Assembly: GCA_030704615.1 (NCBI GenBank)
Contig: CM060731.1
Coordinates: 15,934,001 to 15,998,000 of the forward strand
Source of the DNA: Takakia lepidozioides
Taxonomy: Eukaryota > Plantae > Bryophyta
Length of the DNA: 64,000 nt
Direction of reading: 5' to 3'
Shown: positions 11,144-36,623 of the stretch, in pieces
Layout of the letters: every line of letters begins with the position of its first letter
Numbering within the stretch: the stretch's first letter is position 1
Translations under genes and position numbers: made by a program
Notes under the pieces: generated by a model
What the model saw: the letters and a program-made list of their open reading frames with translations, nothing else
Databases searched by the model: none
Told to the model about the DNA's origin: nothing

Positions 11144-11259
11144 ATATGCGCGATTTGTGCACTCCAGTTATAGACCATGCATGATAGTTTAAGGTGGTAA
11201 CACTCCCTTCGCATTCCCATTAAGATATCATGCTTGGACACTGGATTTTATGATCAATT

Positions 11260-13180: not shown

Positions 13181-16100
13181 GGTGAGCTCGCTTGTCCTCG
13201 TCTCTTCTCGTCTCCTCCTCGTCTCCTCCTTCGTGCATCATTTGCTCAACGCCTCCATCTCACGCCCCTGCATATCCTGCTATCATCGCGTTCCATCCCT
13301 CAGCTATGTGGTGTGGCGCAGGAGACAAAAAGACGCCAAGTCCCAGCCCTCCTTTCTGTTCACGATTACACTAATGGGCAACTTTATTAGCAAAAAAATT
13401 AACTTTTTTAAACCTAATGGGCAACCTTATTTGCATTATATGTGCCTTCAAAATGACACGTGTAGTGATGTAGTCGTATAAATAGAGCTCTGAAACCATC
13501 TTCAGTCATGGAGTCATAAGATTCCATGAAACGTCGTCCACATGTAGTCAAACATATCACACTAGTCATATAAACCATCCCTGTCATCATGGTCAACAAT
13601 GTTTGACCAATGCTCCCTAACTTTCCGGAGTCATGTAGTGATATCCATTACTACAAAGTCATAAAACTAAAACTGTAATGCATTTCAGCGCTCTGTGGTC
13701 ATGTACCTAGTGCAGTTTTTATGACTCCGCCAAACCCGTAGTCCTAAAAACGCTCATCTCTTGTAGTGCAGTCTGTGACATGGGAGAGGCCATCATGGAT
13801 GACCTCAAGGGTGGGTAAGTGCAAACTGTGATTGAGGACCCACTCTTCAGGTGTATGGTTGATTTGCAACGACGCAATGGCGTGAGCGTTGCACGTGAGC
13901 GTACGCTCACGCAGGAGTGACGTGGCGTGAGCGTACGCTCACGCCAGCTGACGTGGCGTGAGCCTGCACACACGCTGACGTGGCGTGAGCGTCATGTCAG
14001 CATGCTGATGTGGCGGTAAATGATGACGTGGCACTGTCCGTCAACTGCCACGTCAGCATTAACATGCGCCGCCTATAACCGTGGATGGTCCTATGACCGT
14101 GGAATTAATGCAGGGAATCTTGCCTAAATAGAAGCAAGACGAGCGTTGAGGCCTACAATTGCAGCATCCAACATTGTGCAATTACAAATGTTTGTTTCAC
14201 TTTTACAATTACGAAGACGACAAAATATCCTCACAAAGTGTGCGCCATAAAGGCTACCACGAGAAGACTTCCTCCCTCCTCAAATAACAATGAGAGTTAT
14301 GATCATCTTCAAAAGATGATTGTAGTGCATAGCGACAGCAAGACATGTAGACTTCGAACGGTGCAATGACAAATGTGCACTACCTAAAAGTTGTCACTCA
14401 GACCTCACTCCGTATAGTTGGAGGCCATATCATTGCACAGCCGACGAATTGATGTGAATTACACATTTCAAATCATGGTCATCCAAATACCACATTACAT
14501 AGTTCATGCTACCCATGTGTTGTATCCCGCTGCAAAAGAGTATCGACCTCGTTGAAACTCATAGTGGCCTGGTGAATGAAATTGTCACGTTTGGGATCGC
14601 AAACCATCCTCCTCAAAAATATGAAATACAAATGTTTGCAGGGTATGAATTTACCTCTCTTGCCCAAACTGGTTGATAGCATATTCACAAAATCAGGACA
14701 TGTGCAATTGGGGAAATTGGAAACCGTGATGTCGTAGGTCCTGTCATGAACAGCAGATGTGGAAGTGATGATTGTGAATACCCGACCATATCCTGGATCG
14801 GGTACTTCCGTGGTGCTTCCGACACGAGCTTGGAGCATTCTTGCGGACTCCACTTTGCCAAAGTGTTCAGCGGTTGGAGGGAAACGCCGAACGAGCTTTC
14901 CATCTCGTTTGGTTGGCCACAAGTCAGGATTTGTCGGTGGGACCCGGGAGGACGCAGAAGTAGTAGCACATGCATGGAGTTGGGGTTGTCTCGCAAGGGA
15001 AAAACCTGCCTCCTCCAGCATTTCAATCTCCTGAAAGCTGAGATGTGTTCCCACCTTCACGGGCCAAACGGTTGGAGGAGATGGCTTCATCACTACGGAA
15101 GGACGCACAGTTCCATGCACACATCTGGTACAATCATCTACGCAGAACCAGAACTTGTGGTTCTTGGCTTCTGGTTGACCGTATGGACGCATCAAGCCCG
15201 TGAAAGTCGGAGCAGGAGTTCGGGCACCACCTCTGGATATAGATGAAGTGCACTTCTCGAAATTAGTTGCCCTGATCGCTGTACATTTCACACGAGACCT
15301 GACACTTGTGCGTTCTATGTGCCAAACGTGGTCGAGGCATGCGGACTCAAGCACATCAAGGGGTTGTTTCTCTCCTGCACCATTTCAGTGGCACGGTTTG
15401 ATGCTGGAGCTTGCCGTCGTGTTGGAGGTTCCTCCACAATGGAGGTTCCGGACATGGAGCTGTCATGCAGGGGAACACGAGGCTTCGAGAAGTTATCACG
15501 GTCTGCCCTGTGGGAATCTGAATCCGAACCAGGTGGAGTGTTCAATTTCCTCTTACAGGAGCCGAATCTCTCCTCCCCTTCAAGATGTGGAACTCTAGAA
15601 ACAAGTGGCGTTCCCTGGGCATACATGCTCACCGCCCGTGCTATCTTGATTGGATCCCCAGATCTGTTTGCAGCACGCAACATCAACTCCCATTTGTCCG
15701 GACCCTTGCCATCAACCCCACCTCGTAAGAAATCACGGTATCGGGTTTGTTGTTGCAAGGCACATATCAAATCATCTGTTGTTGCCACATACAAATCCCG
15801 ACCTCGTTTCCCAGACTGCTGCAACCATGCATTGTGCACAGTTTTCTGCCAAATTGCAAGATGGCATGTCCGCCATTTCCTCAATGGACATGTTCTGCAA
15901 AGAGGATAACCACACTTCAGAATAGTGCACAGGAAACAACATAAAGAAAGCAATGAGCCAAAAATATGGAAAGCAAATGTATGAATAAAGCATGAAATAG
16001 AAGCCTCGTACCATTGTCATGGCTGCTCCCCACTGTCTATACCGGAAGTGCCAAAACGCCAGCCAATCTTCCAATGCTCTCATACTCTCAAGTGATGCAG

Positions 16101-16776
16101 CTCCAGAAGAGAACCACCAGGCACGAATTGTCTGGAACAAAGTGTCTGCCTCCTTCATTGTTCTAGCATCTTTGTACTCTTTGCACAATTTACGGTGCTG
16201 AGTCTGCATCTCTGGTTTGATGTCCGACTTTGTATGTTTTTCCAGAGATTGTGTCCAATGGAATAGACATGTACGCTCTCTTCCTGGCATAGGCACTTTT
16301 GGGTCGCCCGATCCGAAGACAATACGAACAGCATTGAAATTTGCTTGAGCACTATCCGCCATGAAACCTGCGAAATTTGGAGATGGCAGCCCATGGCAGC
16401 CCATGACACGTATCAGGGAATTCCACATGAGCTTCTGGGATTCCGTATCCTCGGATTGCATGTCACAAACTGCAATTGTCATAACTCGTTGGTACACTGG
16501 ATCGTAGACATGACAAGCCATTGTCGTCCAATCCTTCACTCGTTTCACATGATCAAACATAAGAAAACAGTTCTGCAAGTCCCCAGTCTTCTGCATCCGC
16601 TTCACGAGGCTAACCCCACTGCCCTCCCCAACAGTCGACATTTTGAAAAGAAAAACTTTGATGGCACCTTGACCTGGGAATACATTGTCCTGGATGTAAT
16701 CGTACTTGCTCACTCGTTTCAATTCCAAAATATTGTCTATGTAGCCTCTGATCCCAGAGCCCATTCTCAATGCATT

Positions 16777-17132
16777 TGTCAAGTTAAATAAGCACAGTGT
16801 GAAAACAGCTAGAATAAAACTAGTTATTTGTATTTAACACTTGGATTTAGGTCAAGTGTTAAATCAGGTGTCAAGTTTAGTTTGACACCTGGTCCGTCTT
16901 ATCTTCACGAGAGCGGCAGTCGCGCGGCTCATCTTTCTCGAGTTGAGCCTGCGCGACCGAGCTCCTGCATCGTTTAGGACTGAGTGTGCTTATGATGGGA
17001 GTATAGGTTGTTGTGGGGTGGAGTCCCCATAGCTTGGGGTGCCCCTGGCTCGACTTCTGTTTTAACGAGTGATAGCGATGGATTTCATGTTGTTTCTGGT
17101 GTGAACAGTGTGTCTCTTAGCTTTTCTTATCA
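16777..17132 (+). repeat. Terminal repeat A1 (356 bp)
   Basis: Identical by eye to 28773-29128 (TGTCAAGTTAAATAAG...CTTTTCTTATCA). Confidence 0.95.
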
Positions 17133-18228
17133 CTCGAGAAAGATGACTCTATCTAGTTTTCCAGTGCTAAGCTAGATATGATGTTTTTGTTTTTGTTAAG
17201 CACTATTGTAATATAGCTTGGTCACAGGGATCAGAACAGGAGGCTTGAGATGATGCTGCGATTTTTGTCAACCTGTGGTTATATCTAAGAGTGGGGTGTG
17301 TAGGCTGCGCTGCTGACTGCTTGGCTAGATGAGAGCCATGCACCGCCGTAGGCGGGGAAGGCGTCAGCTGATCTGAAGAATCGAGCTGATTCTGCTGCCC
17401 GCACCAGCAAGAGGAATCTGGAGGATGGTACCGACCAGGCAGAGAATCTTGGCTCGACTATCCGACAGCAGGCTGAGAATCTGAAAGAAGCTGTCCTTGG
17501 CTCCACACCAAGGAGCGATGGCGAGGGAGCGAGGGAGCGATGGCGGTCTCGTTGCTGAGGCTGTGACGCTGCGCGCACCCTCCCGACGCTGACGACGCCT
17601 ATGGCCCCTTCTTGCAGCCCGCGCTCTTCTCGACGAGTACTGACGCAGCCGGTGATCGAGCATTCCATCAGCTTGACCAGGGCGCATCTTATGGGGCTGT
17701 GTATGCGGTCTCAGACACTATCAGAAGGGGAAGACAAAGAAGAGGACCTGGAATTGGAGCCAACAGAAGGTCAGCTTTCTTTAATCCATTTAGAGAGCTA
17801 CTCCGCTGGCCTCTTTGGGTGGGATTGACAATTAGTAGGGGTTATCAGACGATAGCCCACCGCCACGAGCTTCTTTTGTGAACGTTCCGCACCTCCCAGA
17901 AGTGGTGGAAATTTGGCGGGACTTGATGAGCATAAGTCCTTCTCACCTTGCGCCAACTTGTTTGAAGTATGGGGAGTAGTTCGCACCAGACCCGATCTGA
18001 ATGAAGAAGCACTGTTCTGGTGTTAAGTTTAGGAACTATCCGTGGTAAATATGATGACATGGGAATGCAAGAGAACTGGAAGAAACGACGAAGGTGAGTA
18101 AGCTGGGTGCACGACTGAAAGTGGGAGTTACCTGCTGGAGATGAGAGAAGCTTAATCTGTTTTAGAAGTCCATGGACGCCAGCTTGAAGGTCTAACACTG
18201 GTATTACAATACTGGTGTTGAACGGGCT

Positions 18229-18714
18229 GTGCAACTTGTGGCAGCCTCCTCTTTAGAAACACCAAAGCATACCAATATTTTGAAGCTTCTACTTGATGGA
18301 GCAGTGGCTGGAGCCACGGCAGGCGTAGTTGTGGAGACAGCCCTGTACCCGATTGACACCATAAAGACCCGCCTTCAGGCAGCGCGGTGTGGTGGGGGGA
18401 TAGTGTTCAAGGGCCTATACTCAGGTCTTTCCGGCAATCTTGCTGGTGTTTTGCCGACATCAGCTATATTTGTTGGAGTGTACGAACCCTTAAAGCGCAA
18501 GCTGCTGGAGATCTTCCCAGATCACCTCAGCTCTGTTGCACATCTGACAGCGGGAGCTTCAGGAGGTGCAGTAGCATCGCTGGTTCGGGTGCCCACTGAG
18601 GTAGTGAAGCAAAGGATGCAAACAGGGCAGTTTGCCTCAGCCCCTGGAGCAGTGCGAGGAATTGTGGCCAAGGAAGGTTTGCGGGGTCTCTACGCAGGAT
18701 TTGGATCATTTCTG
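18229..18714 (+). pseudogene. SAMC1: Intronless, 3'-truncated copy of S-adenosylmethionine carrier (mitochondrial carrier family) captured in the retroelement
   Basis: GAVAGATAGVVVETALYPIDTIKTRLQAAR...GLYSGL.GNLAGVLP.SA.FVGVYEP.K.KLL..FPDHLS.VAHLTAGA.GG..ASL.RVPTEVVKQRMQTGQF.SAP.AVR closely matches plant SAMC1/2. Two Px(D/E)xxK carrier signatures are present; homology stops at GLYAGFGSFL. Confidence 0.88.
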
Positions 18715-19925
18715 AATGGCAATCAGCTTGATGGAAGCAGATCTTGGATTGTCTTCTATCTCAACCGGGGTCTGCCCTGCTAGGTACTTACAACAGTCCC
18801 GGCGCACGTTCACCATCAGATTACCGCAATGCAGGTCAATAGTCAATACGGATTAAGGAAATTCCATGTGGCCATGGAGGTCAAGACACATTGAGTTACT
18901 GGGTTGCAAGACACATTGCCGCCACATTGAAACCAGTGGGGCATTCTGCGGTCAGAGACTGTCGGTCGATTGGCAAAAGTGTAGGTGAACCCGTGTACCG
19001 TCTACGGTGTCTTTTCTCTGTTGTCGCCACCTTATCAGCGCGCTTGTTCCACAACACAGAGCGCATGTTACAATCAACAGCAAACGCAAGAACCTGCAGC
19101 TCATCGACATAGACAAACGCATCAGTGCCGACGGCTTTCTCCCCCGTAACTGGAATGGGCCGGGGACCCGCAAGCTCCAGTGCTTCCCGCTGGTAATCCT
19201 CCTCAGTGAGTTTATCGTTAGCCACCAAGGCCTCGAACAGACTGTGAGTGACCCCTCGCCTGTACATGGCGTCCATAAACATGTCTTTCCTCCCCCTCTC
19301 TTGGTGCGCAAGCCTGCAAGCAATCCCGGAATGTTGACACCACTCTCTCTCACAGCAAGACACTATTGAGTGCCACAGTTCCCTCTCTCTCTCTCTCTCT
19401 CTCTCACTCTCGGTATGCAGAAGACTGGAGCAAGGTGCGAATTATAGGGCACGTGGCCAGGGAACCTAGGAAACCATATAGAACGTAGGGAACTGGGAAC
19501 CAGTTACCATATAGTTTGGGTAACTTTAAATTTTTAAATTTGAAAACCTTCAAAAAAAAAAAAAAAAAAAACAGGGCATTTTGATCTAATTTAAATGATG
19601 TAAAGCCAAATTGGTCATATCTTTGTCAAATGGACTCTGTTTGACCCAGTTTTTGAGGGGGATAGCTGCAGAAAGGGGAAATCTACCTACCTAGACCTGG
19701 TTTCTGTTTTTGGGACTCTGCTAAAAATCTATGGAATTTTTAGAGTGTGAGTGTGCCATAAAAGATCCACAATCCTGTCTCTAGAACCTGTGCTGGTCTA
19801 TATGAGAGACAAATCTGTGGATGTACTCCTTGCATGGCTGGGGGAAATGAGGACGTAATTGAAGGGCAGGTCTCTTCTGCACACAAGGGGACAGGATTTA
19901 TGTTTCCCAAGGAACTCAGACTGAT

Positions 19926-22900
19926 TTGAGTGGAGAACAGTTGGACGAGTTGATTGCATACTGGGAGTCAGGCATTAGCAGTAGACAACAGACTGCTGTA
20001 GTTGGCATTGAGGGCCTCAATATCGCCTTGGACAGTCAGAACTCTGTTGGAGCCAGCAGTTCTGCAGCTGTAGGTGAAATACCGAAGTGGGTGAAAGCTA
20101 GGCTTGGAACACAGCCAAAGACAGCCCCGGGACCAAGGTGTTCAGTCACAAGGCCGTGGTGTACTGGAGCAGAGGAGCAGGAGCTACACAAGTTTGTGCA
20201 ATCAGACATGGTTGCAGCCGGATACGCTCTGCACAGGGCAACCCGAGCGGGGGTTCATCAGCAATGACATGTTTGTTGTGCGTGAAGGAGATGCAGTCAT
20301 TTCGCAATGAGGACACTCGCAACCGTCTCAAAGCTTTTGAGTTGAGAGACTATCATACCCTACCTTTGTTTTCTTTAGTGTTCAGTGAGCGGGAGATAGG
20401 GGAGTATTGCTTTGTCTCTACCTGGCAGAAAGAGGAGAGGGTTGGTTAGAGCGAGCTACGACAAGGTTAGTGGCAGGTTTCTGGACATAGATATACCACC
20501 TCCTACACCTTACCATCATGCAGAGCGAGGCACTTTGAGAGAAGTCTGGCAGTTGATAGCATAGATCAGGATTAGATCTTGCTTGGTCGGGCTTCTATTC
20601 TTCCCCTCCATCTCTGTACTATTTCATTACCTTACCTTGTACTTGTAGTTGCCAAAGCCTCTCTTTGGTGGAGGCCAGTCAGTCCGGGGTTTTTGGGCTG
20701 GGATATTCTGCAGGATCAGCATTGCAGCTGGATTTTGTTGTGGGGGTGTTGATGTTTTGATTTCTTGTGTTTGGATCCCCCCCAACACCTGCATGCTTGA
20801 CTGTGCGCCATGTTGGTTTTGTGTGGGCGCTTGCTTTCATAGGGATTAGGCCGGATTTGATCACCGTCAATCCTAGAGTATGCTGTCGGTGGTGAGGCTG
20901 GAGTGATGACCAGCAAGAACCACCAGTGTTTGTTCTATGGTGAGGCTGGGTTGATGACCAGCCAACCATAGGAGTTCTTGCGGTGGATGCAGGTGCAGGT
21001 GCCCTGAGCCATTGGATATGACCCTTAAACTGCAACAGGTGCCCCACCCGTGTCACTATTACATTAGTACTAGAGCCTTATAGTGTCACGTGGAGAGGTG
21101 CACATTGTGAGTGTCATTACGGAGTTACCCAAGGGTTTTGAGGGGAGTACGGCTACAGGCAGTAACAGTGAGAGTGGGTTCACAAGACGAGGTATTTGGT
21201 TCAGACCACCTCACCGCCACCCCCCTCAATTACTGTAGAGTCAGACACAGACTCGGAGGCTTCATCAACAGGTGTGCACTTTCATTCGCCATTGTTTGTG
21301 GGACGACATGGAGGAGATGTATGGAGCTACCAAGGGGCCTCGTAGGTACTCTGGAGCTGTGGGCACAATCGAGTTTGGATGACTTATTCAGGAGTTCGAT
21401 AGCTGGTGTGATTTGCAGCAGATGCGCAATCCACAGCTATTCACCCCATCATGGCGTGGAAGGGACTGTTCCAGCATTTGGAAGGCCCGCCTATGGACGA
21501 TTACCACGAGTTCAGGCGAGGACATGAAGCAGAGATTGAGGAGTGGAGGATTGTTTGGTCACCTGACTACGTCTCCATTACTCGAGGCACGACGCGACCA
21601 GTAGCTGCATCAGTACCAATAGCTCCCACTGCCAGCACTAGTAGTGGAGCAGTAGTGCTGGTACTTCTGCAGGTGGTACCAGTTCAAAAGGTGCTACTAC
21701 TCCTCCTGCCACAACTACAACACATGTGCCTAGATTCAACCCGGTGGTGAGTTCTTCCAGGATTGCGGAGGAATTACCAAGGTGTACGGACAGAGAAACT
21801 GCGAAGTTTTGCAAGACTTCCAGCGCAAACCCAGTGAGAGCCGCGAGAGGCGTACACTCGTATGAGGCTCTTGATAAGTGTGACCCAGGGTTACTGAAGC
21901 TCAGGCAATCCAGTTTGGGTATGGAATTCTAGACAAGGAGCTCAAAGAAGGGTGGCGAGATGCAACCCTGTTACAAGCAAGCCCAACCCACCTTAGCAGA
22001 TGTGTTCTGCTGGCTGAGCGGATTGAGCTCAACATGGTGGAGGAGCGAGTTGTTTACAATTGGATTTGGCAAGGACATGCCTGTACTGGCCACAGCTGTC
22101 AGCCCACAGGCACAGGGACTGCCCAACCACGTGGTCAGGGGGGCAAGGTTGTCTAGCCCAAGTTCCATGGAGCTTACACAGGGGACCTCAGGTGCAGAGG
22201 CCCGTGGCATCTTTTTGCAGGCCAACAGCAACCAGGGGTGATATGTTGGACATTGTGAGGACCCCATGTCAAAAGAGATTGCCCAGAGAATGGCAGAAGG
22301 CCGGCACAAGCACAGCCTGCACAGTTGCAGTGTGGGCATTGTGGCAAGTATGGGCATGTAGATGCCCATGTTATGACTTGCATCCTGAGTTGCGCCCATG
22401 CCAGTTCCAAGGGAACACTGTTGGCCGGGGGCAAGGTGACTTAAGCCCAAAGAGGACGAGGTGGTCGGCACGAGGTGTGCAGGCCAAGGGCAAGCTCCAC
22501 ATGGCCAAGTACGCGGAGGTCAGGGTTGTTGACCAAGGCATGCCAATCGGCTTCAGCAGCTGAGCAGAGGCTCGCTGCCATGGCTATAGCTCAGGCGGAC
22601 CCCGTCTCCCAGGCTGGATGTCCACCTCCTGCTCCTGAGGGAGGAGATATGGGAGGCATGGGATTCATGTGCGGAGCAGCACTACCACTAGAGCAGGTGG
22701 AGTCTGCTGCAGCCGTGACTCGAGGAGCAGCACGAGTTTCCGGAGGCCACGAGGTGCAGAGGTGGAGTTGGATCCACAACGGGGGAGGCAAGCCGTCGGC
22801 GAGGCTGCCTCAGTCCATTCACCTTGGCGGAGACAGTGTCAACGCCATCCATGCACCTAGTTCTCTCCCGACTGTACCGAGGCGGAGGTTACCTATGCCA

Positions 22901-23290
22901 TTGGGGAGAGCTACACGATGCAGCACTGACACCTGCTACCAAGGCTAGTGCAGCCGGTGTGTTATTGGGGGCAGCCACCTCTGTGTGTCAAGCCCCACTG
23001 TTCTCGGTCACCATGATTGCGACGCCGGGGGTGAGACCAGCTGCAGTGTTCAACTAGCAGCAACTCTCTGTGAGAGTGGGGAGGTCCTCTTCACTTTCAT
23101 CTTCTGCGGAGTTATGGAAGGTATAGGTGGCAGAGGGATCCTCGGATTTGAGGGTCAAGACTGCCACGGCTGCGCCATGGCAAGTTGCAGCTGCAAGTTG
23201 ACGGAGCTGCCAGCTAGGCCAGCCATTGAGCGCGCCATGGTGACACCTGGAGTTGTCTTGTAGACAACCAGGAGGCATTTTCACTTTGAG
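19926..23290 (+). pseudogene. gag-like region of the retroelement, heavily frameshifted, with two CCHC zinc knuckles
   Basis: QCGHCGKYGHVDA(H)CYDLHPELRP at ~22328-22397 (one frameshift) and a CWT.CEDPHVKRDCP-like knuckle at ~22245-22285, located upstream of the protease. Boundaries are uncertain. Confidence 0.55.
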
Positions 23291-23299
23291 TGGACCGGC

Positions 23300-23650
23300 A
23301 GGCAAGAAGTACCGGCCACTGCGGGTCTTGTTGGACGCAGGAGCTCAGCCATTTTTCTGCTGGGCAGAGCTGCTATTGCAGGTTTGGGCCTCATGGAGGC
23401 GGATATGGAGCCTTGCCCTTTCCAGATACAGACATCTCTGGGAGGATCAGAGCAGGCTCGCGGCATGACACGGCATCAGTTGGCTATTAGACTGCAGCCG
23501 GATCATCCTGTAGATGGCTCAGTGATGCGAGCCAAGGCCATTGTGACAGACGCGGTCTCTTACGATGTCCTTGTTGGTGGGGCAGTGTTATACCCCATGG
23601 GCTTCACCCTGGATTTTGGGAGGAGTCAGCATCCTACAGGCCTGGATGGC
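23300..23650 (+). pseudogene. Retroviral-type aspartic protease domain
   Basis: LRVLLDAGAQP (D-[STA]-G-A motif) followed by ...SYDVLVGGAVLYPMGFTLD (ILG.D-like motif); frameshifted. Confidence 0.8.
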
Positions 23651-24039
23651 AGTCAGGGGATGGTCGCCGTGCACAGCTCCCTGTGACATTCATTGGGGGT
23701 ATTGCAGCTGCCCAGCGGGGCAAGATGCCAACACTAGCCGCCTTCACAGTTGCCGTTAGTTGGCCTGGAGAGTTGCTGGAAGGCAATGCCCATGCAGAGG
23801 ATGTGCCACCTCCAGCAGAGCAGGATGACATGCATGGTACGGCGGAGTTGCCTGCCATGGTTGCTCACACTCCGTTGTGGGATACGAGCAAGGATTTGCA
23901 GCAGCTGCTAGATGGACGGGTGCAACAAGCTTGGGAAGAAGCTTTTGTACCGTCAGGAGAGGAGGAGAGTGCGGTGATTGCACCAGGGCCACCTCAGTTG
24001 TCGCCATTGGACACCACACCTCTGTGTGGCAGCGGCCGG

Positions 24040-24990
24040 ATGAAGGCATTTGCCTTCTGGACTTGTTTGGCGGGATCAGCACCGGATTGGCTGCTGCTGC
24101 TACAGGCAGGTGTGCGGGTAAGGCGTTACCTGTATGTGGAGAGGGATGAGACTGCACGACGCGTCTCACTGCGCCATGTGGCTCAGTTGGTACAGCAGTA
24201 CCCTGACTTGTTGCCTGTGTCTGCAGTTCGTGGATACCAACAAGCCTTGCCAGCAGACATTTCCTTGTTGGGGCGCAAGATTTGGAGCAGGTTGGCTCCA
24301 TTGATCTGATAGTGGCAGGTTGGCCCTGCCAAGGGCATTCATCAGCCGGGCATGGCAATGGATTGCGAGACTCGAGGACGGGTCTGTTTTGGGAGATGGT
24401 GCGGATTTTGCGCTGCTTGCAGCTTCATCAAGCTGTATCTCCAGCATACATCTTGGAGAATGTACACTGATGGGTGATTCTCGGGCCAGGGTGATGGCCA
24501 GTGTGCATCAAGTCCGTCGTGGCTTGGGTCAGCAGTGTTGCTGGATGCAGCTGCAGTGGGGTCACGGGCTCATCGTCCACGACTATGGTGGACTAACTTG
24601 ATGCCACCCGCACTGCTCAAGCGTGCATTTGATGGGGTGCAGCGGCCAGCACACCTCACCGTGGATGGCATTTTGGACACAGGAAGGCAGTCTCAACGTG
24701 TGAGACACGATGACCGTTCGCCTTTGGCAGTGGTCAACAGGGTGGGTCAACCACGAGCAGCATTACCTACACTGCTCAGCTTCCCAGGATCCCATGCTTT
24801 TTCGGGATGGTGGACCTGGCCTCCTGTGGGATGCTCAGTTGCAGCAGTTAGTGGAGCCTAATGCCGACGAGCGAGAGCGGGCTATGGGGTTTTCCACTGG
24901 GACCACGGCGGTGCCTTCTCTTTCTGAGGCATCACGTCGTCAGGTGTTGGGGCAAGCAATGGATCTCAATTGCTTGACCTGGATTGTCAG
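24040..24990 (+). pseudogene. C5 cytosine DNA methyltransferase domain inside the pol region
   Basis: Motifs in canonical order across frameshifts: I LLDLFGGISTG, II YLYVERD, III ADI, IV DLIVAGWPCQGHS, VI YILENV, VIII SRAHRPRLWW, IX ERERAMGF, X VLGQAMD. Confidence 0.92.
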
Positions 24991-25459
24991 CTTGGCTATG
25001 GCTGAGCAACGTAGAGTGCGGAGTGCACTTCCCTTGACGGTCTCTCTGCCTACCGAGACGGTACAGCAGCCGTGGGGGCGAGCTGGTGAGGACCACGAGG
25101 TGTAGACATCCATGGCACATGTGGGAGGTGCTCGAGGGTCAGAGGGAGTTGGCAGCGAAGGCAGCTGTGATGGATGAGGTTGGGGATTCTTCTCGGGATG
25201 AGGAGGTTCTCAATGATGAGACGATGGGGCAGGATGAGGCCTGTCATTGACTGAGCAGGAAGGGGGTACTGCTCAAGAGGTTGCAGCATAGCAACCACGG
25301 GACGCGTCCTCTACCTCTAAGCCCACTGGACTTAAGGTTGCAGTTACGGAGGACAATTGGGAGCCTGACATTGGACCCATTGTCACCGGAGGAGAGAGAC
25401 GACGTATACGGCGGTTCCTGAGGGCTTATAGGAATTGCTGTGCTTCAGTTTGAAAGGAC

Positions 25460-28420
25460 TTGGGAGCACTGAAGGGTCAAGAGATCCGTATTGAGTTGGC
25501 CACTGACACGCCAATCTTTCGGAGACCCTATAGATACAGTGACATGGAGAGGTCTTTGATTCAGATGAGGACTCAAGATCTCTGGGAGGCAGGTTTGGTG
25601 GAGCTCTCTGGTGGAGAGTATGCTTCAGCCACAGTGATGCCAGCTAAGAAGGATGTCTATGGCAATTGGACGGAGAGACGTATGTGCGGTGATTACCGGC
25701 CTGTAAATCGTCAGACCAAGTCCGATAGGTATGCCATGCCAACACCAGAGGAGATCTTTGATGCCATTGGGCATTCCAAGGTCTTTAGCATGTTGGATTT
25801 ACGATCCGGATATCACCAGTTGCCGATCAAGGAGGCGGATAAGCAAAAAACGGCATTCTGGGGGATCAACGAGCACGGGAAGGATTGCCTATACCAGTGG
25901 CGGTTCTTACCATTTGGGCTTAAAAACGCTCCCGCTGAGTTTCAAAGAGTCATGGACAGGATTCTAGCAGGGGTGGAGTTTGCTCGGTGCTACATAGATG
26001 ACATCATCATCTTTAGTGCTACGGTGGAGGAGCATGAGAGACACCTTCAGGGGGTATTTGAGCGCTTGAGGACGCACGGATTGAAGTTACATCCGGGCAA
26101 GTGCAAGTTTTTCCACAACCAGATTGAGTATCTGGGTCACATGATATATCCTGGAGGATTGGGGGTACAGCAGACTAAGGTAGAGTCCATTGCACAGGTT
26201 CCACGCCCCACGGATGTGAGCCGAGTTCGAGCTTTCATGGGGTTAGCAAACTATTACAGACGGTTTGTTAAGGGATTTAGTGCCATTGCAAAGGCTCTAA
26301 CCAAGCTGACCAAGGTGGACCAGGAGTGGCAGTGGGAAGATGAGCAAGAACAAGCTTTTCAAGAGCTCAAGGCGAGGTTGACCTCGGCGCCCATCTTGAG
26401 ACGACCTATCAGGGGGCGTCCTTTTCAGCTGCATACAGATTGGAGCATGCTGGGGCTTGGAGCGGTGCTCACACAGGTGGATGATGAGGGAAGAGAGTTC
26501 GTAGTGGCTTATGCTAGCCGCTCGAACAATGCTGCAGAGTCTAAGTATAGCTCATATGAGGGAGAATGCTTAGCTGCAGTGTGGGCCGTGGCACACTTCA
26601 GGTGCTATCTATACGGCAATCTCTTCACCCTTGTCACGGATCACCAACCACTCAAGTGGTTGATGGAGTCAGACAAGCTTACGGGGAAGCTTGCACGGTG
26701 GGCACTCAACCTTCAAGAGTATGACTTTCAGGTGGTGCATCGACCGGGTTTGGTCAATCGAAATGCAGATGGGTTGAGTCGCAATCCATGCACGAGCCAG
26801 CAGGATGACACTGGAGCTCGGTGGCATGGTGAGACGGACGAGGAGATGGTGCCCGGATGGCATGCATCTGCATTTCTGTGTATCTTGGCAGCGGAAAGCC
26901 AGGTTGGACCTACAACAGGGATGACTGTAGATCAAGTGTCTGCGGACCCTGAGGCCAGCAATGAGCAGGGTGGCGCCAAAGATATACATGAGGATTCAGT
27001 TGTGTTGGACTACCTCCGCAGTGGAGACACGGCAGCCATTATGACTGCCAAGGAGAGGGATCGGATCCTACAACGAGCCAAGAGGTTCAGGTGGGGAGGG
27101 GACACACCTGCTCCGAGTGTGGGAGGATGGTCGAGTGAGGATTGTGCCTCACCCAACACAGCGGGCACGGTTAGTGCGGCATGCCCATGAGGAGTTGGGG
27201 CATTTTGGGGTGCGACGCACTCATAGTCTACTGCAGGGGCAGTATTGGTGGCGTGGTATGCACACAGAGGTGCAACAATTTGTGGCTAGGTGCATGGTGT
27301 GTGACAGGGTGCGTGCTTCATTCAACGCCCCTACTCCACAATTGCACCCTCTTCCGATCATGGGATTGGGCTACAGGTGGAGTCTTGACTTCGTAGGGCC
27401 GTTGCCACTGACCATGCGCCACAACAAGTACGTGTTGGTGATGGTGGAGCACTTCTCCAAGTGGATTGAATTGGTTCCATTGCCTGATAAGGCTAGTGAG
27501 GGAGCTGCGTATGCATTCCTGGATTGTGTGCTTAGCCGATCTCGTCTGCTCCAGAGAGGTACTCACGGACCAAGGGAGAGAGTTCTTGGGGGAGTTTCAG
27601 GCTTTGTGTGACAAGGCCTTGATAGACCACCGCACCACTTCTCGGGATCTCCTGAAGCCGATGGCTTGGCAGAGAGAGTTGTTCAGACAGTAAAGAGGGG
27701 TTTGCGCAAGTATGGCTTGCAGAAGGGACACCTAGGAGATTGGGACCTTCAGTTACCCTGGTTAGCCATGGGCTACAGGTTCAGCAAGCAAGCATCACTT
27801 GCCTCCTTCTCACCATACTTTCTTCTCTTTGGCCGAGAGCCGGATTTGCCTACATCCATTCGCAGAGAAGCTGCTACAGTTCTTAACCTTGACGATCCGG
27901 ACGTGTGGGCACGTGCATGTGAGCAGCGTGCAGAGTTGTTCAAGAGAGTCATGCCCATGGCTTTCGAGAACCTTGCCATTGCACAACACCGTGATACGTT
28001 GAGGTATGCTACCATACGTGGTGGGGGCTATCGTCCTGGGGTTCGGAGATTCAACCCTGGTGACTATGTCTATCTGCAGCAGACTGCTCCTACGACCCTG
28101 GATGTGACTGCAGGACGTGTTATTTTGAGGGTTCGAGAGGTCTTGCCCTCAGGCGTCTTGGTCTTGGAGGGTCGGGATGGCATAACTTGGAAGGACCATG
28201 TGCGTAATTGTGCGCCATGTCACCTTCCGAATGTCGATGGCAGGATTGACCCAAACCTGGCAGTGGTATCTGCAGGTTTGAGGTGCATGTTGTGTGGGTC
28301 TGCTAAAGGGGCAGCCACCATGCTGGTGTGTGATCGATGCTCTAGAGGTTGGCATATGGGGTGCTTGACTCCACTCTTGAGATGGTTCCAGATGGGATTG
28401 GTTATGTCCACAATGCATTG
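25460..28420 (+). pseudogene. pol: reverse transcriptase, RNase H, integrase (HHCC plus DDE) and C-terminal PHD finger
   Basis: RT: RMCGDYRPVN, LDLRSGYHQ, LPFGLKNAPAEFQR, YIDD. RNase H: LHTDWS, YEGECLA, TDHQPL, ADGLSR. Integrase: HEELGH...CMVC, LDFVGP, TDQGREF, AERVVQTVK. PHD at 28284-28416: CMLC...LVCDRC...HMGCL..P...WLCPQC. Frameshifts at about 27100, 27540, 27650 and 28375-28395. Confidence 0.95.
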
Positions 28421-28685
28421 GATAGTGGGAGTGGATACAACCATGGGAGACTAACAAGCAACGCAAGGCCCAGCTACTAGGAGACCTTGAACACACGAGG
28501 TCCTGGCTCAAGTTCACAGATTGCAAGATGGCGACTAACGATGGGGCTACTCTTGTACCCGGCCTCTTGGTCTATAGAGTTTGAGTACAATAGGGACAGT
28601 GATAGAGGACTTAGTACGGCTGTGGCTATTACATCTTGTAGCTATCTGGAGGTAGAGGGACCTATCCACCAGCTAGGGGGGCGAT

Positions 28686-29214
28686 TGTGGCAGACTACTT
28701 TATTGTGCATATATGTATGGTGTGGTTTGGACAGCGATGTAGTTGTGTAGCGATATGTATGCGCACGACAGCTGTCAAGTTAAATAAGCACAGTGTGAAA
28801 ACAGCTAGAATAAAACTAGTTATTTGTATTTAACACTTGGATTTAGGTCAAGTGTTAAATCAGGTGTCAAGTTTAGTTTGACACCTGGTCCGTCTTATCT
28901 TCACGAGAGCGGCAGTCGCGCGGCTCATCTTTCTCGAGTTGAGCCTGCGCGACCGAGCTCCTGCATCGTTTAGGACTGAGTGTGCTTATGATGGGAGTAT
29001 AGGTTGTTGTGGGGTGGAGTCCCCATAGCTTGGGGTGCCCCTGGCTCGACTTCTGTTTTAACGAGTGATAGCGATGGATTTCATGTTGTTTCTGGTGTGA
29101 ACAGTGTGTCTCTTAGCTTTTCTTATCATTGTGGCAGACTACTTTATTGTGCATATATGTATGGTGTGGTTTGGACAGCGATGTAGTTGTGTAGCGATAT
29201 GTATGCGCACGACA
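28686..29214 (+). repeat. 3' terminal repeat block B1(28686-28770)-GC-A2(28773-29128)-T-B2(29130-29214)
   Basis: The two 85-bp B copies are identical by eye, and A2 is identical to A1. A purine tract AGGGGGGCGAT lies immediately before B1. The B1/A2 junction is the palindrome GACA-GC-TGTC. Confidence 0.93.
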
Positions 29215-31319
29215 CATTGATCTGATGCCGAATGTTAGGTGAACTTAAAGTGGAGAAATGATCCATGACTAGGTCCAATGCTGCACCGTCAAGTTTAGTC
29301 CCCACAGAATCTCCTTCACTCAAAATATGGCTTTCCAAGAAGGACTTGCTTGCGCCAAGAGCAATTGCAGATGTTGTTGCGGATGGGTTTCTCCCGAACT
29401 CCTGTTTGATCAACCTCAATACTGTCTCAACACTCTCCCTGTAATCCCCCTTCGAGACAGGATGGTTATGGAATCCAAAATGCACACAAGCTCTCGTCAT
29501 TGTATTCAAACGGTGGACAACATAGTACATTCTTGCTCCGCAGAGCGCCAAGCAGGATGGCACAAGTTTGCAGAATTTGCAGACGAAAGTGTTTGCCGGT
29601 GGAGGGGCAGTCCCAGGCTGAAATGGATTTTCCGCCAGACCCTCCCATTCGCTTTGATTATGAACACCAGACTGAAGAAAGTGTCTGCAATTCAAATTAT
29701 CACACCTAAGGTGTCCATTGCAAACTGTCCTCCTGAAAACAAGCTTGTCATCATTCTGAATATTGGATGTTTTTGTTCTGCACCACGGGTGCCCGTCGTG
29801 TTTCTTGTCCATTCCATGCATCATGATTGTTATACCTCCAACTCGCGGAGGAGGAGGCAGCTCGAATAGGATATCGCCATCAAAAGTCTCCGGCAAGAAC
29901 TTCACAGGCACCTGCTTCAAAGATTCCCAATCAATTCCCCGCAACTCACTTTTGAATCCAGCCATTCCTCCCATCGCCCGCAATTTTGGAATGACACTAC
30001 AAATCTCTTCTTCATCAGCTTCTGCAACCACAGTAGGAAGGACTGGATTTGGAATTTCACTTATGTCATCATCGGAAGAATCCGAAAGCTCAACGATTGG
30101 AGTGGAGGAAGTCTGTTCTTTTTTCACCACCACCTCCCTCTTGTCTTCAACGACCGAAGCAGCAGTCCCGGGCGTCACATATGACCCAAGGGACTTTCGC
30201 CGAGGCTCTCCAAGTACTCTGTATCGACCAGGACGCACTCTCCACTGGCTGATATGAGCCGTCTCATCACGGTTTTGGAAAGAATATTTCACCAAATTCC
30301 CTTTCAGATCGTAAACCTCTTTCTCCAAAAAGATGGAGCCATTCTGCAGCTGAAAACGGGTAGCCAAGACATGTTCCAGAACAATTGCAAATCCATTGTC
30401 AAGGACTTCCTGGGAGAACGGCACTAGTTTGTCGTCTGAGAAGAACTCCGCTTCAGAGGAAGCCATCTTCCTTCCTCGAGTATGTTTGTACCTTGCTATC
30501 GCAGATCTAGTGTAAATCGGTTTACTGCTGTCTCCAGAACACAGTTGAAGAATGAGCAGAGAATATGGCGGAGGAAGCTCAGATAACGACTGTGCATATT
30601 CTGTTATTCATTCCAAATATGCAGCCGTCCATTTTAATTACTTTTCTTGTGGGCCCAGTGGTCAGAGTATCCCTAGGGGCAGTGTCGGCAACTGTTAAAC
30701 CGTTAATCAGAACCTCATCAATAAACCCAATAACAAAGCCGACTTCCTGGAAGCATGCCACAGGATTGAGAATGGGATTGCAGATTAAGTAAATGTATCT
30801 ATATACTACTACCAATGATCATGCGCACCTGGAAAGTTCCAAATGTGAAACGAATGTGGGGTTTGGCTAACAAGGATGACCGTGTATGATATTCCAAAAT
30901 TTGTCATCAAACTCTCGTTCATTTATATTTATTTGTTTAAGACTGCGCATCAATTTCTGGGATTCGCTGTTCTTTTTAAATATTGAACCCGTTATAATAA
31001 AGAACACGCCGTTTTTTTTGGGCGGCACACGTCAGACATCCATAACTGAATACGAACAGCTGTACACCAATTGATGGCATGTGCACTAATAAGGAAACGA
31101 CTATGTGGAACGGTCACGCGGGAGGGAATCCGATGCTTCTAGAGACACGCAAGAACGCAGGCAATCCCGCAAGAAATCGGGAGTCACTGCGTTTTTCTAC
31201 TTTTCGCGCTTAGAGGGAGAGTGGTAGTCAAGCTGGAGAGGGTTCCTTCTAGAATACGAAAGAGAAGAAAGTCTCTTTATTTTACTTCCCTTAGAGAGAG
31301 ACGCAGAGCAAGAGAGAAA

Positions 31320-34300
31320 ATGACGAGGCGTCGTTTGTTGGAGAACACAGGGCCAAGGCAGCAGGTGAACGCGGAGACTGATTCACAAGAGCAGACGGAG
31401 ACTGAGGCAGCGGCTGCGACACAGTCGGCGATAAGAGTGCGCCAGCCTGTGGAGGCAAAGATGATTCGCAGGGACACTGAAGAAGGTGGAAGCACGCGGA
31501 ACGCCGAACCTGGAGAAGGTCAAGAAACCCTTGCGCAGACAGAAACTCCAGCAGATGTGAGAGGGAAGAGGAAAGCTGCAGAAGGGGATCAAATTTCAAA
31601 ACCTAAGAAGGTGCCAGTAAGTTTTATCATATAGTCTGTCTGATTGCCTTTCAAGGAGTCCTTCCTCTTCCATTCTTTAGCAGGAACTACTGAATCGCGA
31701 GCGTCGTTAACGCCATTCGATTCTCCTCATGAGATTTATGTACCTATGTGTTTGAAGAGAGAGTCTGCACTTACTATTCTCCCTAAACTACACTGAATGT
31801 CGTTGCCGCCAATCAGTTGCACATGTATGTCATTACACAACACCGATCCGGCAGGTCGTTATCTTTTGTGATTGTCGTTAACGCCGTTCGCTATCGCTAT
31901 CGCTTTTGTTTTGAATACGGCAGTCTCGGCTTTGCATGTGTAGATTGTGCTGAATTCTTTCACACCATTCATGGTGAGTTTCCTTGATACAGAGTGATGG
32001 TCGTTACCGCCATTCACTATTTGCAAATCACTCAGTCAGAACTGAATGGCATCGTGCAGAAAACTGTGAGGTCGAAGCCTACAGGATCAGAGGGGAAAGG
32101 ATCTGGAGATGGGGACGAGTCCGCAAAAAGCTCAGAGAATACAGATGAAGCAGATGAATCCAAAGTGCACTACCTTGACAATGTGAAAGAACTCATGTCA
32201 TTCCAGAAGGTAAACTCTCAGGAGGTTATAAGGGACATGCTCGTATCTGGAGGGCGTCTGGACATACCTCTGTGCCGGATGATATCAATGCCTGTTGTGC
32301 GTCCACCTCTTTCCCATGACATAACAAAATTGGAGAGTGATTTTGTGCATGGATATAGACTTGGTGCACAAGTTTTTTATGTGTCACTGATGGATATAAA
32401 TGGGAAAAGCACATTAGTGTCTCCAGAGATCAGTGATAACTGGGATGAGTGCTGGAAAGATGCCAATGAGGAGTTCAAGCTGGGCCTCATGATGGGAAAG
32501 AACACCCAGCAATTCTGCAACCACATGTTCTACGTCTGGGACGGCAACCACCGATTGCTGGCATGGATGGGATACATTCAGAAACACCATTCGAAAGACA
32601 AAGACAAGCATGTTGTTGTGGAGGCAATGGTTTTGGATCCTGGAAACGACATCGCTAGGCTTCTTACAGCTATGCACGACGTGAACAAGTAAGTCATCCA
32701 GGAGATTTCATTCCCTCTGTAGTGTCTTGTTAATCCTCAAAAAACAGTGTTAAGGAATGCAATGTTTCCAATGTTTTTGCAGATCGACAGAGAAATCGTA
32801 TGTGACAACAAGCTTGGTTCACACACTATTCCGAATTCAGAGGATTGGTCTGATGAAGCTGGATGATTTTCGGACAGTACTACCACCCAATATCATCAAG
32901 AAGTGCGAAACAGGAAGAGCTGCAGGCACTTGGTATTCTTTGACACGAGAGGCGTTTCTGGAGTACATGTATGCGGTAAGCCCGAGTCTGTAATCTGTTT
33001 ACTTTTCGAATACATGTTTGTAGTCCCTTCGGAGCTAATCACTACTTGAATGAATGCAGCAAGAACTGGCAGAGGCAGCTGAGAAGGGCAAATCCGAATA
33101 TTACCGCACTACACCAGAAGAACTAAGGACATCAAAGGGTGTGGAAGCTGCAATAAAGAAGGAGTTTGAAATGCGAAGAACCAAATTGATGTCAGCCTTC
33201 GGAAAGCAGCTTAGAATAGTAGATCCTGGACTTGGTCCTGAGTTCCTTCAGCAGATCAAAACACACTATGACAAGCATGTGCATCCGGAGATGCAGCAGG
33301 AGAAATTGCACGGTTGGCCATATCGATGGTCGACCCACAAACAAAAATAAGGTGGCTGGAGATATGGAACTCAGATCAAACAGTAAAGGACTTGAATCAG
33401 TTCCCAAAGAGCACCATACAGCCTGGCACAAAGGTGGAAGGAATCAGTGATTTGGTCTTTGATAACTGGCTCCACAAGGCTACATTTTGGAGTCAGGTGT
33501 GTATTCGAACATGCTGTTTCTTATCTTCAAGTATGTGATGTGTATCTTTTTGGAAATCTGACAAATATACTATTTGCAGCTCGAAAAGCGCGCCGTCATT
33601 GTGCTGGATCAGACTTTGAAGGACCTGAACATTGCGATTGTTTCCCCTCCCCAAATGTCATTGGAGGCATACATAAGGAAGTGGAGAGGTCTCACGTGGA
33701 GATACTGTTTTTTCCGGGAGTTCTCCAAAGATAGTAACATTTTACGGTCCAACGACTTTGACAGTCAGGTTGGAGGAGAGTGGGCCATGATGCGAGTTGT
33801 GTACAGGTGCAATGTCATACTTGAAACTCTACTGTTTTTTGGGAAAAAATGTGGCTTCATATGGATTGCAATCTTAGATCCAGATTGAATGTCGTTGACG
33901 ACATTCACTTCTTTGTCTAAGTCATTCTTAAGCGAGTATGTGAATTCACCTGGTTAGGATCTAAGGGTGCAATTATATTGTCCCTGATTAGAATTGATAA
34001 TGTCCTTGAATGGCGTTGACGACATTCACATACGGAGTTGTTGAGAGGTCCTCAGAGTTATTTAAATTTTTGTAATGTCCATAGAGGTTACAGTGAGGGT
34101 TCCTCACTTCATTTTGCTGAATGTCAATGCAGACATTCAGTTGTTCTGCATTGTTTTTGCCTCTTGCGATGAATGTGGAGGCTTGATAAGCTCTGTTTTA
34201 AGAAATCCAAAGTGAATGTCGTTGACGACATTCACAGCTGTGTCTGTATTATTCAACAGCGACAAATTCAATTTACATGGATTGGGGAGCTAAGTAATTG

Positions 34301-36623
34301 GTTTCTTTTTGTATTTTTGTGAATGGCGTTGACGCCATTCACATACAGTGATGTTGTGAGGTCCTCAGTGATAGGTTCGTTATGAATGTGCATTGAGTTT
34401 TCCTGGAGGGTTCCTTACTCAATTTTTTTATTTCCATCCTGTGATTTTGCTTCATTTAAGTAATAATTTGGCTTCATTCTTGAATGTCGTTGACGACATT
34501 CACTTCTATGTCTGTGTCATTTCTAAACGATTATTTGCATTCACCTGGATTAGGATGTATTTACAGTGTCATTGAATGGAATGTTCTGAATGGCGTTGAC
34601 GACATTCATATCTGGAGCAGTAGTGTGGTCCTGAAAGGTCCTTGGAGCAGTTGTCAGAGCCATTTCAATCTATGTTTTATTCTTTCTGTTCTACTTGCAT
34701 CTTACTCACTGAGCGCTTTTGTGGGTTGGGATTTATCTCCTTTTTTCAGGTACACAAAATATGTGCTTATGGAAGGAAATCACCTGAGCGGAATTCCCGA
34801 CTATCTTGACATGTGGTCGGACCCTGCAAACGATCCAACCATGTATACTGCAGGGATATTGAAGGACTGGAGTCCTTCTCACTTCAGAGACTGTGGGTGG
34901 TACCTTGACTGCCCACCTGAGCACACGACCTTTCAAGAACAGCATATGAAATACTTGAACAATAACGCTGAGATGCTGGCGCCTTTGACTGACGAAGAGT
35001 ATCAACGAAACATAGCAACCTTGGCTGCCAAGGAGCCTGATGCTCAGGGAACGCCGCAGAAGGGAAAGAAGGCGGGCCGCAAACCAAAAGACAAGGCTGT
35101 TGATGTCATAGCCATCTCACCAGCAAAGCCAAAGGACAAAGACAAGTCCAAAGAGAAGGAAAAGGACAAGGGGAAGGAGAATGAAAAGGAGATGGAGAGT
35201 GGGCAGGACTTTACTGCTGGAAGATATACCCGCACTCTTCAGTGCGTGTTCGATGCCAAGCCACACCCTTCCCGTTCTGATTCAGCAGGAGAGATGAAAA
35301 TTGTTAATGAGGGTTGGCTTTCGATGATGCAGAGTCGAAAGAGAGGATACACTGGGGTGCCATCCCCTACCTGGGACAATATAATCTCATTCCTCAATCT
35401 GGTGAGAATTCCAGTTTCTTTCCTTTTTCTCTGAAAGTTTCGTTGGCAGTATTTCAGTCTCGTTCTTTGAAAACATTCTTGCCATCGTTCTTATAAAAAA
35501 CATGTCTGTTGCAGGTGAGCACAGGTCCCACCTTCGTGTGCGGTGTGCAGAAAACTTATGCGGCCGACATTGTCATTCTCGACATCCCGGATGGCCAGGC
35601 TGTGCCAGAAGTTCTTCCAAAGGGCAAGACGCCAGGCTGGAACAAATTCGAGGACAACTACTGGAGTTGGGTGTTCGGGTTCTGTAACAATTTCCTCTCT
35701 GATGCAGGGACACTTCTGCTTTTTCAGTCATGTGACAATGATAGTCGTCGGGCATTGGCATCATACCTCAAGTCTTCAGGGTTTGAAGTTTTGCGCACAT
35801 GGAATTGTGTGAACAGCCTCTACCTTGTGAAAGGGGGTTTCCCTGGTCAGCTGGTATGCCGTCTCCCTTCTGCTTGTGCTTTGATCATGAGTTTCAATTT
35901 TCTCTGCAGCTCCACTCTAGTAGAATGTTTTATGATCGACACCGATCATCAACGATTCATGATTTTTTTGTGTCAGAGTTCTGAATAGCCGATGTACACA
36001 CTTCCACTATAGATTGTGTTTACCACACTAACCTGCTATCTTTGCCAGACGAGGATGTTCGAGGCGATCTGCCTGCGGAGGATTTGCACATCAAAGACAC
36101 CATCCTCCATCCGCAGCTTTGAGATTTCTGACCAGGGTTGTTTCGTCAACCCCCCCTATGAGCCCCATGTCGATGACATTTTGTACAACTTCATGCAGTC
36201 CAGTCAGACTCTGAAGAGACCAGATGGCACTCCCTGGAGAGGTGCAAAGGAAAAGTCACCAGCATTCATGCAAATACTGCTGGAGTCATGCAGCCACCGC
36301 TCTGCACGGGTGGTCGATCTTTCTGTGTCCACAGGTTCGTTTTTTCCCTTCCGAATTGGTTTCCTTTCAACAGTTTCATCTGCTTAAATCCCCTCCTCCA
36401 AACTGTTCATGTTCTCCTGTCTGGTGCAGGAGCAACTTACCACGCATGCAAGGCAGGCGGAAGAAGCCTTTTTGGCATGGAGGGTGATTCTGACCTCTAC
36501 AACACCGTGCTCCTCCCCCTTTTGTCTGGCTCCACTTCAGGCACACAGACTGATCGGATTCAAATTCGAAATGATGACGATCCCGAAGATAAGCAGGTCG
36601 ACAACGACTTTTCATGTGAGTAA
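31320..36623 (+). CDS. MULE cargo gene (~9 exons): ParB/Sulfiredoxin-like domain plus C-terminal beta-class N6-adenine/N4-cytosine DNA methyltransferase-like domain; one apparent frameshift at ~33310
   Basis: Frame-compatible GT-AG exons: 31320-31610, 32060-32688, 32783-32975, 33060-33496, 33580-33806, 34750-35401, 35515-35853, 36049-36334, 36430-~36620. ParB-like MFYVWDGNHRLLAW. MTase-like ADIVILDIPDG (cf. DLIxxDPPY), FLSDAGTLLLF, GAKEKSPAFMQILLESCSHRSARVVDLSVSTGATYHACKAGGRSLFGMEGD (cf. TQKP..L..LI..S...D.VLDPF.GSGTT..A....R...G.E.D). Confidence 0.75.
33887..34609. repeat. Intronic array of palindromic 20-24 bp motif (GT)GAATGTCGTTGACGACATTC(AC)
   Basis: Copies start at 33887, 34008, 34119, 34214, 34321, 34482 and 34588. 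Four degenerate copies lie in intron 1 (about 31701, 31795, 31870, 31994). Confidence 0.9.

Follow-up and report, generated by a model that had tools for sequence, protein, structure and literature searches.

The 64-kb stretch of Takakia lepidozioides DNA analyzed here (the window) carries a frameshifted copy of a land-plant Gypsy-type retrotransposon with a DNMT3-type C5 cytosine methyltransferase (DNMT). In the reading that we favor, to which we give a probability of roughly 0.6, the DNMT3 ends the Gag-protease frame, reverse transcriptase (RT), integrase (IN) and a PHD finger lie behind a likely leaky stop, and intact copies load particles with the enzyme in Gag-like amounts and probably methylate the cDNA that they produce.

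Structure of the Element and Its Insertion Site

The retrotransposon comprises 12,438 bp (16777-29214), begins with TG, ends with CA and is flanked by a 4-bp target duplication (Table 1). Contigs with the empty site (public runs X2 and X5) join 16772 to 29215 with 4 letters in common. The repeats are split, in the order A1 ... polypurine tract, B1, GC, A2, T, B2 (A...B-A-B), an end structure read from one integrated copy with both flanks. As A1 equals A2 and B1 equals B2 without any difference, the insertion seems recent, although the coding region is broken. The broken copy was presumably mobilized in trans, or an assembly error may be the source of the broken coding region.

Table 1. Features of the retrotransposon, in positions of the window.
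Feature	Position	Strand	Evidence or remark
Target-site duplication, left copy, 4 bp	16773..16776	.	Empty-site joint
Repeat A1, 356 bp, begins with TG	16777..17132	+	
Predicted self-primer (likely RNA 5' end)	16929..16942	+	Exact complement of the 14 nt behind A1
Predicted self-priming primer-binding site, immediately 3' of A1	17133..17146	+	14-nt match
Low-copy captured host transcript pieces, copy-specific	17147..19540	.	Include intronless mitochondrial-carrier fragment 18196-18783
Poly(A) tract in the 5' leader	19552..19571	+	Similar tract in L004 leader
gag region, frameshifted	21137..22800	+	tblastn with P0209, P0217, P0204
Aspartic protease region, frameshifted	23180..23680	+	Active site DAG, relatives D[TS]G
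DNMT3-type C5 cytosine methyltransferase domain, motifs I-X, five frameshifts	24027..25063	+	
ORF1 stop in TAG-CAR-YYA (readthrough-type) context	25289..25297	+	Frame of the RT ORF
Reverse transcriptase and RNase H, 578-codon open frame	25454..27190	+	Pfam RVT_1 4e-32, RT_RNaseH 5e-36
Integrase, H2C2 zinc finger and DDE core, frameshifted	27045..28280	+	Pfam Integrase_H2C2 5e-17, rve 1e-5
PHD finger, integrase C-terminus, truncated by frameshift	28284..28376	+	Pfam PHD 6e-6
Polypurine tract ahead of B1	28672..28685	+	Conserved in L004
Repeat B1, 85 bp	28686..28770	+	
Palindromic B/A junction GACA-GC-TGTC, joins right and left end sequences	28767..28776	.	Conserved in L004
Repeat A2	28773..29128	+	
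Repeat B2, ends with CA; one T (29129) links A2 to B2	29130..29214	+	
Target-site duplication, right copy	29215..29218	.	

The element shows the Gypsy domain order, i.e., protease (PR), RT, RNase H (RH) and a DDE integrase with its D, D and E residues present; the protease site reads LLDAG (Asp at 23334). The PHD finger is complete (Pfam 4e-10) in L004, a 9,285-bp contig (CADCWO010000201.1) that holds an intact element. Among the element ORFs scanned, the integrase is of the rve/H2C2 type and neither a tyrosine recombinase nor a chromodomain is matched, with a PHD finger present.

The insertion flanks are the two halves of an interrupted, multi-copy transposase-like ORF on the minus strand (14509-16776 and 29215-30607), which are otherwise open; downstream of it is a SWIM-finger ORF. 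The leader includes about 2.4 kb of low-copy captured host sequence. Among the captured pieces, which differ by about 2% from the aligned contigs, segment 17766-18025 is skipped at GT..AG in another contig, and a minus-strand piece lies beside a CT repeat. The carrier fragment matches Pfam Mito_carr at 2e-27 and may resemble a SAM carrier. A tie between the captured carrier and the supply of SAM is not established; searches name the fragment only "mitochondrial carrier" and the insert is low-copy.

The rest of the window contains a decayed CACTA (Tnp2) transposon (7060-11140), a GAAAT-rich repeat family of about 200 bp in dispersed and tandem copies (53119-53276, 56160-56221, and 62146-63970), and fragments of PPR genes in both orientations together with a second dispersed repeat family (1-1000, 11365-12994, and 44284-45881). 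Host genes with open frames encode a GT92 glycosyltransferase (42699-43688) and a UDP-glycosyltransferase (51670-53082), and exons of an ABC transporter, also a host gene, are found at 57780-58947. The PPR, UDP-glycosyltransferase, GT92, ABC transporter and CACTA sequences indicate that the host is probably a land plant, and among the public data sets with matching contigs one is a plant metagenome. Multi-exon-like ORFs at 31988-35988, including one without Pfam match (31988-32689), probably belong to another transposon-borne gene.

The Methyltransferase Is of the DNMT3 Type and Evolves Under Purifying Selection

An earlier note on this DNA had listed methyltransferase motifs between protease and RT, on the same strand, and three-frame translation of 23200-25600 finds each of them there, on the plus strand: motif I as DLFGG (Phe at 24066), motif II as YVERD, motif IV as GWPCQ with the catalytic Cys at 24327, motif VI as ILENV at about 24450-24464, motif VIII as HRPRL, motif IX as EPNADERERAMGF, and motif X as LGQAMD at about 24950. 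An 87-aa piece (24207-24467) matches Pfam DNA_methylase at 7e-13 (49 bits, cut-off 22). The copy is indeed frameshifted, as had been stated, since intact natural relatives align across the entire domain in six frame segments, i.e., with five frameshifts. With X put at the breaks, the window DNMT is 74% identical to Marchantia copies. At all five break sites, contigs from public runs have a length other than that of the window (14-51 contigs per site in run X2), and one 5-kb contig from another organism covers the entire stretch and differs at 5/5 break sites. Because contigs differ at each break, the frameshifts are specific to this copy or to its assembly.

A profile built from 71 family sequences matches, in the PDB, DNMT3A at 2e-28, DNMT3B at 9e-26, DRM-type enzymes at 6e-15 to 2e-11 and HhaI at 3e-10. 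An AlphaFold model of the domain of the natural relative P0209 (pLDDT 95.6) matches DNMT3A at 9e-22 with a TM score of 0.73, and all 31 rows listed are DNMT3A/B/C. Between the DNMT3/DRM and Dcm-like types, which the earlier note had set side by side, profile and predicted fold thus decide for DNMT3: the family methyltransferase is DNMT3-type and not Dcm-like. A bacterial Dcm/HhaI-type origin is ruled out by profile ranking and fold matches, and identity with DRM is ruled out by motifs I to X running in order, unpermuted, as well as by profile and fold. With host enzymes, i.e., DNMT3 (animal DNMT3A/B; moss PpDNMT3b, PMC6453930) and DRM2, the domain has the DNMT3 catalytic fold and the motif order in common. 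It is about 20-23% identical to host DNMT3 and has ∼40 residues more than the matched DNMT3A chains, in a comparison that leaves plant DNMT3 aside. In contrast to host DNMT3 and DRM, it has no PWWP or ADD and is intronless; unlike DRM, it is unpermuted.

The DNMT is under purifying selection. Among six intact ORF1 proteins it is 47-75% identical, conserved above Gag in 15/15 pairs and above the protease in 14/15 (one point below in the other). As to dN/dS, which the earlier note had named as a check, dN is 0.42 and dS about 2.3 between window and L004 (310 codons; one pair, near saturation). Among copies, 18 of 27 classified differences are synonymous, a count that comprises 28 rows from among 40 of 143 contig rows, one being dropped at a break.

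The Methyltransferase Ends the First Open Reading Frame

The earlier note had placed the DNMT inside the pol polyprotein. Its location between protease and RT on the same strand stands, but an in-frame TAG at 25289 divides DNMT from RT, and in the closest clade the DNMT forms the C-terminus of ORF1 (Gag-PR-DNMT) and a probable readthrough stop precedes Pol. In this clade the DNMT is in frame with PR and RT, with a conserved stop before RT. The window stop reads TAG CAA CCA and the peptide before it ends with EVAA, the relatives' ends being EEVS, CVA, GVA, and KVAT. In L004, ORF1 (Gag-PR-DNMT, 3-3488) is followed by TAG CAA TCA and, in the same frame, by ORF2 (3492-6632; RT-RH-IN-PHD, 1047 aa). 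UAG followed by CAR-YYA is the readthrough signal of TMV, with about 10% readthrough in vivo (PMC2754532). A context of this type follows 1/299 stops in L004 and 2/429 in the window element, where that at 25289 is the sole TAG, and the frequency of CAR-YYA hexamers is 0.0015-0.0033. Within the clade of the window DNMT, 36/40 database proteins stop before RT or RNase H is reached, in most cases 94-163 residues past motif X. The DNA of two elements (window and L004) and the protein ends together point to readthrough.

An enzyme that ends ORF1 ahead of a readthrough stop would be made at Gag and not at Pol levels, i.e., at roughly ten or more times the output of RT and integrase. Such a dosage would not be universal, because distant relatives carry DNMT and RT in one frame or the DNMT between RNase H and integrase. 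Since the DNMT would be part of Pol only in the readthrough product, we class the element as a lineage variant and not as the Klebsormidium family itself.

Relatives of the Element in Green Plants

The window element belongs to an abundant family, and relatives occur in liverworts, peat moss, and green algae. A search with the DNMT region of P0004 yields 52 proteins, including 12 named Marchantia, 2 Haematococcus and 1 Sphagnum fallax. Cluster look-ups add Sphagnum troendelagicum, further Marchantia copies, Closterium, and Mesostigma on the DNMT side and Calypogeia and Coleochaete on the RT side, and an exhaustive search gives 263 representatives at 1e-30, 150 of them listed. Of the DNMT matches, 145/201 have another retrotransposon domain, and 56/201 are DNMT-only pieces. 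Three layouts exist, namely Gag-PR-DNMT followed by a stop, PR-DNMT-RT in one frame, and RT-RH-DNMT-IN-PHD (including Haematococcus). In run X1, summed contig depth, which is no measure of copy number, is 11,591-23,413 in the DNMT bins, 7,173-14,285 in gag-PR, about 10,000 in the family core and 1-12 over the captured insert. The DNMT thus has a depth similar to that of gag-PR, which exceeds that of the captured insert about a thousandfold. Domain company and depth make the DNMT a feature of the family and not a one-off insertion, a possibility that the earlier note had raised.

Among metagenomes, the RT scan gives just two loci, L001 and L002, both with DNMT remnants upstream and probably one element; they are decayed, with stop context and repeats unreadable. 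Among viral contigs there is one distant match (L003; E 3e-8, 31% identity) with no other retrotransposon domain. L004, a plant-type retrotransposon contig, comes from a cyanobacterial genome record, and NCBI/UniRef label its Pol as cyanobacterial; binning contamination is the probable cause.

Phylogenetic analysis of 163 sequences with both RT and RNase H (386 columns, FastTree supports, one Tanacetum RT as root) groups the window element with Calypogeia and Marchantia (0.955), within a clade of 51 that includes Klebsormidium and Closterium (0.909). This clade holds two named K. nitens sequences that are known as RTs, not as KnitGypsy-Dnmt3; the DNMT searches yielded no named K. nitens sequence. 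The claim of a C5 methyltransferase on a Gypsy-type retrotransposon akin to the Klebsormidium elements agrees with this RT clade and with the shared repeat design. In the corresponding tree of the DNMT (midpoint root; 204 domains of 270-420 aa), the window clusters with Marchantia and Sphagnum (1.0), and 98/98 domains located after RNase H belong to one clade (0.78). The trees suggest one old acquisition of the DNMT and one move of the domain.

In a sister group (P0005, P0006, P0041-P0053 and others, including Haematococcus), a DNMT3-type domain is situated between RNase H and integrase; we met no description of this group in the literature examined. The RT search also turned up four related RTs with a Dam adenine methyltransferase (P0329, P0337, P0338, and P0341), 3/4 with a PHD finger according to precomputed Pfam. 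In the RT tree they lie immediately outside the DNMT3 group, which suggests an exchange of cargo within a single RT lineage.

Priming and Integration

The 14 nt right behind A1 are the exact complement of 16929-16942 within A, and 0/11,450 control positions exceed 10 nt. L004 has an equal geometry, with an A repeat of 359 nt, 12-13 nt of pairing and two compensatory changes. Both the pairing and the readthrough context are known at the DNA level from these two elements. ARAGORN finds no tRNA genes in the 64-kb window. The putative primer-binding site fits self-priming of the Tf1/Tcn1 kind (PMC6317226).

The palindrome GACA-GC-TGTC occurs at the B/A junction of the window element and of L004 and was not found in the decayed L001/L002; its halves equal the ends of the integrated copy. 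Reverse transcription self-primed at the A1 end and PPT-primed at B1 would yield a linear cDNA with B-GC-A at both ends, so that B2 could not be copied from RNA downstream of A2. The seam A2-T-B2 (29128-29130) is the product expected if the right end is joined to the left end. Given the self-priming signal and the palindromic junction in two elements, we infer that the cDNA ends are joined, as a two-LTR circle or by an end-to-end template jump, and that integrase would then cut internally, at the palindrome of the upstream repeat, giving A...B-A-B. Such an end-joined route would be unusual, because retroviral two-LTR circles are not known to be precursors of integration.

Taken together, these features would describe a green-plant Gypsy lineage whose land-plant readthrough branch makes DNMT3 at capsid stoichiometry and pre-methylates its cDNA, and in which priming is tRNA-free and an obligatory end-joined intermediate is cut by a DDE integrase at an internal palindrome. 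We hold this composite picture tentatively, at less than even odds.

Possible Function of the Methyltransferase

According to the favored reading, readthrough of the ORF1 stop at a few percent would make Pol, the protease would free the DNMT, and new cDNA would be methylated inside or just outside the particle, before or at integration. The cDNA would enter chromatin already methylated and so would resemble resident methylated DNA. The window element shows no CpG depletion that would point to self-methylation (observed/expected 0.45-0.54 vs. 0.55 for the whole window), although the element is somewhat lower than neighboring transposons (0.63-0.64); the intact L004 has 0.73-0.84. CHG depletion is not found in the window element either, and the CpG content gives no support for heavy CG self-methylation. 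Moss PpDNMT3b carries out de novo CG and CHH methylation (PMC6453930), and therefore CHH specificity is possible for a retrotransposon DNMT as well.

Alternatively, the enzyme might be directed at host chromatin, with nuclear Gag-PR-DNMT or free DNMT methylating the target site or other elements under guidance by the PHD finger. Output at Gag levels would exceed the need of one cDNA, the PHD finger of the integrase is retained across the lineage, the element is without special CpG loss, and the host-type PpDNMT3b works in heterochromatin (PMC6453930). Against this, the domain itself lacks a PWWP or ADD reader, and as part of the Gag precursor the enzyme would be in the particle together with the cDNA, as is established for retrotransposons. 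We consider a host target unlikely.

It is also conceivable that the domain is kept for binding and not for methyl transfer, as a clamp or shield on cDNA or RNA or as a competitor of host silencing. The Klebsormidium domain, i.e., the isolated KnitGypsy-Dnmt3 domain, gave no methylation in yeast, a result that its authors call inconclusive (PMC5890265), and Glu replaces Pro before the catalytic Cys in 91/204 domains, the window copy keeping Pro. However, the catalytic Cys is present in 202/204 domains and the motif VI Glu in 204/204, and the two Arg of motif VIII and the SAM-binding glycine hardly vary, a conservation that is partly circular because the domains were found with a DNMT query. 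In addition, the related SymbioDIRS-Dnmt3 domains methylated CG in yeast (PMC5890265). A pure binding role is therefore quite improbable.

Similarly improbable is a true terminator at the end of ORF1, with a spliced or separate RNA as the source of Pol; even so, the DNMT would be made in the Gag frame. Four of the 40 clade proteins (Marchantia gene models) and one Sphagnum model continue past the DNMT into RT, RNase H, or integrase. Against a terminator, these models drop linker pieces of differing length, as if gene prediction had skipped a stop (parts of the linker are missing in the three Marchantia models inspected), ORF2 keeps the exact frame, and in each of the two elements known at the DNA level the stop is followed by CAR-YYA. 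Finally, although this copy did take up pieces of host transcripts, a one-off capture of a host gene, like the carrier fragment in the leader, is refuted for the DNMT by the depth, the orthologous position from algae to liverworts, the broadly matching RT and DNMT trees and the purifying selection.

Relation to Known Elements and Significance

The closest known element, KnitGypsy-Dnmt3 from Klebsormidium nitens, combines Gypsy domains with DIRS-like repeats (de Mendoza et al. 2018, PMC5890265). It resembles the window element in its Gypsy domain set, an intronless, unpermuted Dnmt3-type domain, A...B-A-B repeats and purifying selection. In contrast, the paper puts the DNMT of KnitGypsy-Dnmt3 in the Pol ORF, whereas in the window element it ends ORF1 ahead of a readthrough-type stop, and the host is Klebsormidium in one case and a land plant in the other. 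Likely readthrough, predicted self-priming, the palindromic junction and the PHD finger are features of the window element without mention for KnitGypsy-Dnmt3 in the parts of PMC5890265 consulted. SymbioDIRS-Dnmt3 of Symbiodinium also has a Dnmt3 domain in a retroelement polyprotein and A...B-A-B repeats (PMC5890265), but integrates by a tyrosine recombinase, while the window element encodes a DDE integrase and is bounded by TG...CA ends and a 4-bp duplication. Tf1/Sushi and the plant Tcn1 chromoviruses share replacement of the tRNA primer by self-priming and the order RT-RH-IN (PMC6317226), but have ordinary LTRs and a chromodomain and no DNMT, in contrast to the split repeats and PHD finger found here. 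Chlorophyte DAM-LTR elements and EpiLTRs (bioRxiv 10.64898/2026.05.21.726589) likewise are Gypsy-like LTR elements with a methyltransferase cargo, which there is an adenine methyltransferase or a DNMT4-related enzyme with a chromodomain and here is a DNMT3.

The same preprint terms the lineage "streptophytes (Gypsy-DNMT3)" (bioRxiv 10.64898/2026.05.21.726589), and in the passages of later papers examined only "streptophytes" are spoken of and land plants are not named. Within a coverage that leaves out most subscription journals, Repbase reports and some figures and supplements, the literature holds no description of Gypsy-DNMT3 in land plants and none of readthrough or self-priming in this lineage.

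What retrotransposon DNMTs do has been a question since 2018, as the known hosts are difficult experimental organisms and the Klebsormidium domain was silent in yeast. As Marchantia polymorpha, a genetic model, has many uninterrupted Gag-PR-DNMT3 entries, specificity and methylation of cDNA become testable. The stop-and-readthrough layout predicts far more DNMT than RT or integrase. As the predicted self-priming site would fix the cDNA ends, the A...B-A-B repeats become a concrete claim on the action of the DDE integrase and, if the claim is true, an LTR retrotransposon would regularly use a circle-junction route. For the annotation of bryophyte genomes, it means that Gag-PR-DNMT3 frames can be miscounted as host methyltransferase genes.
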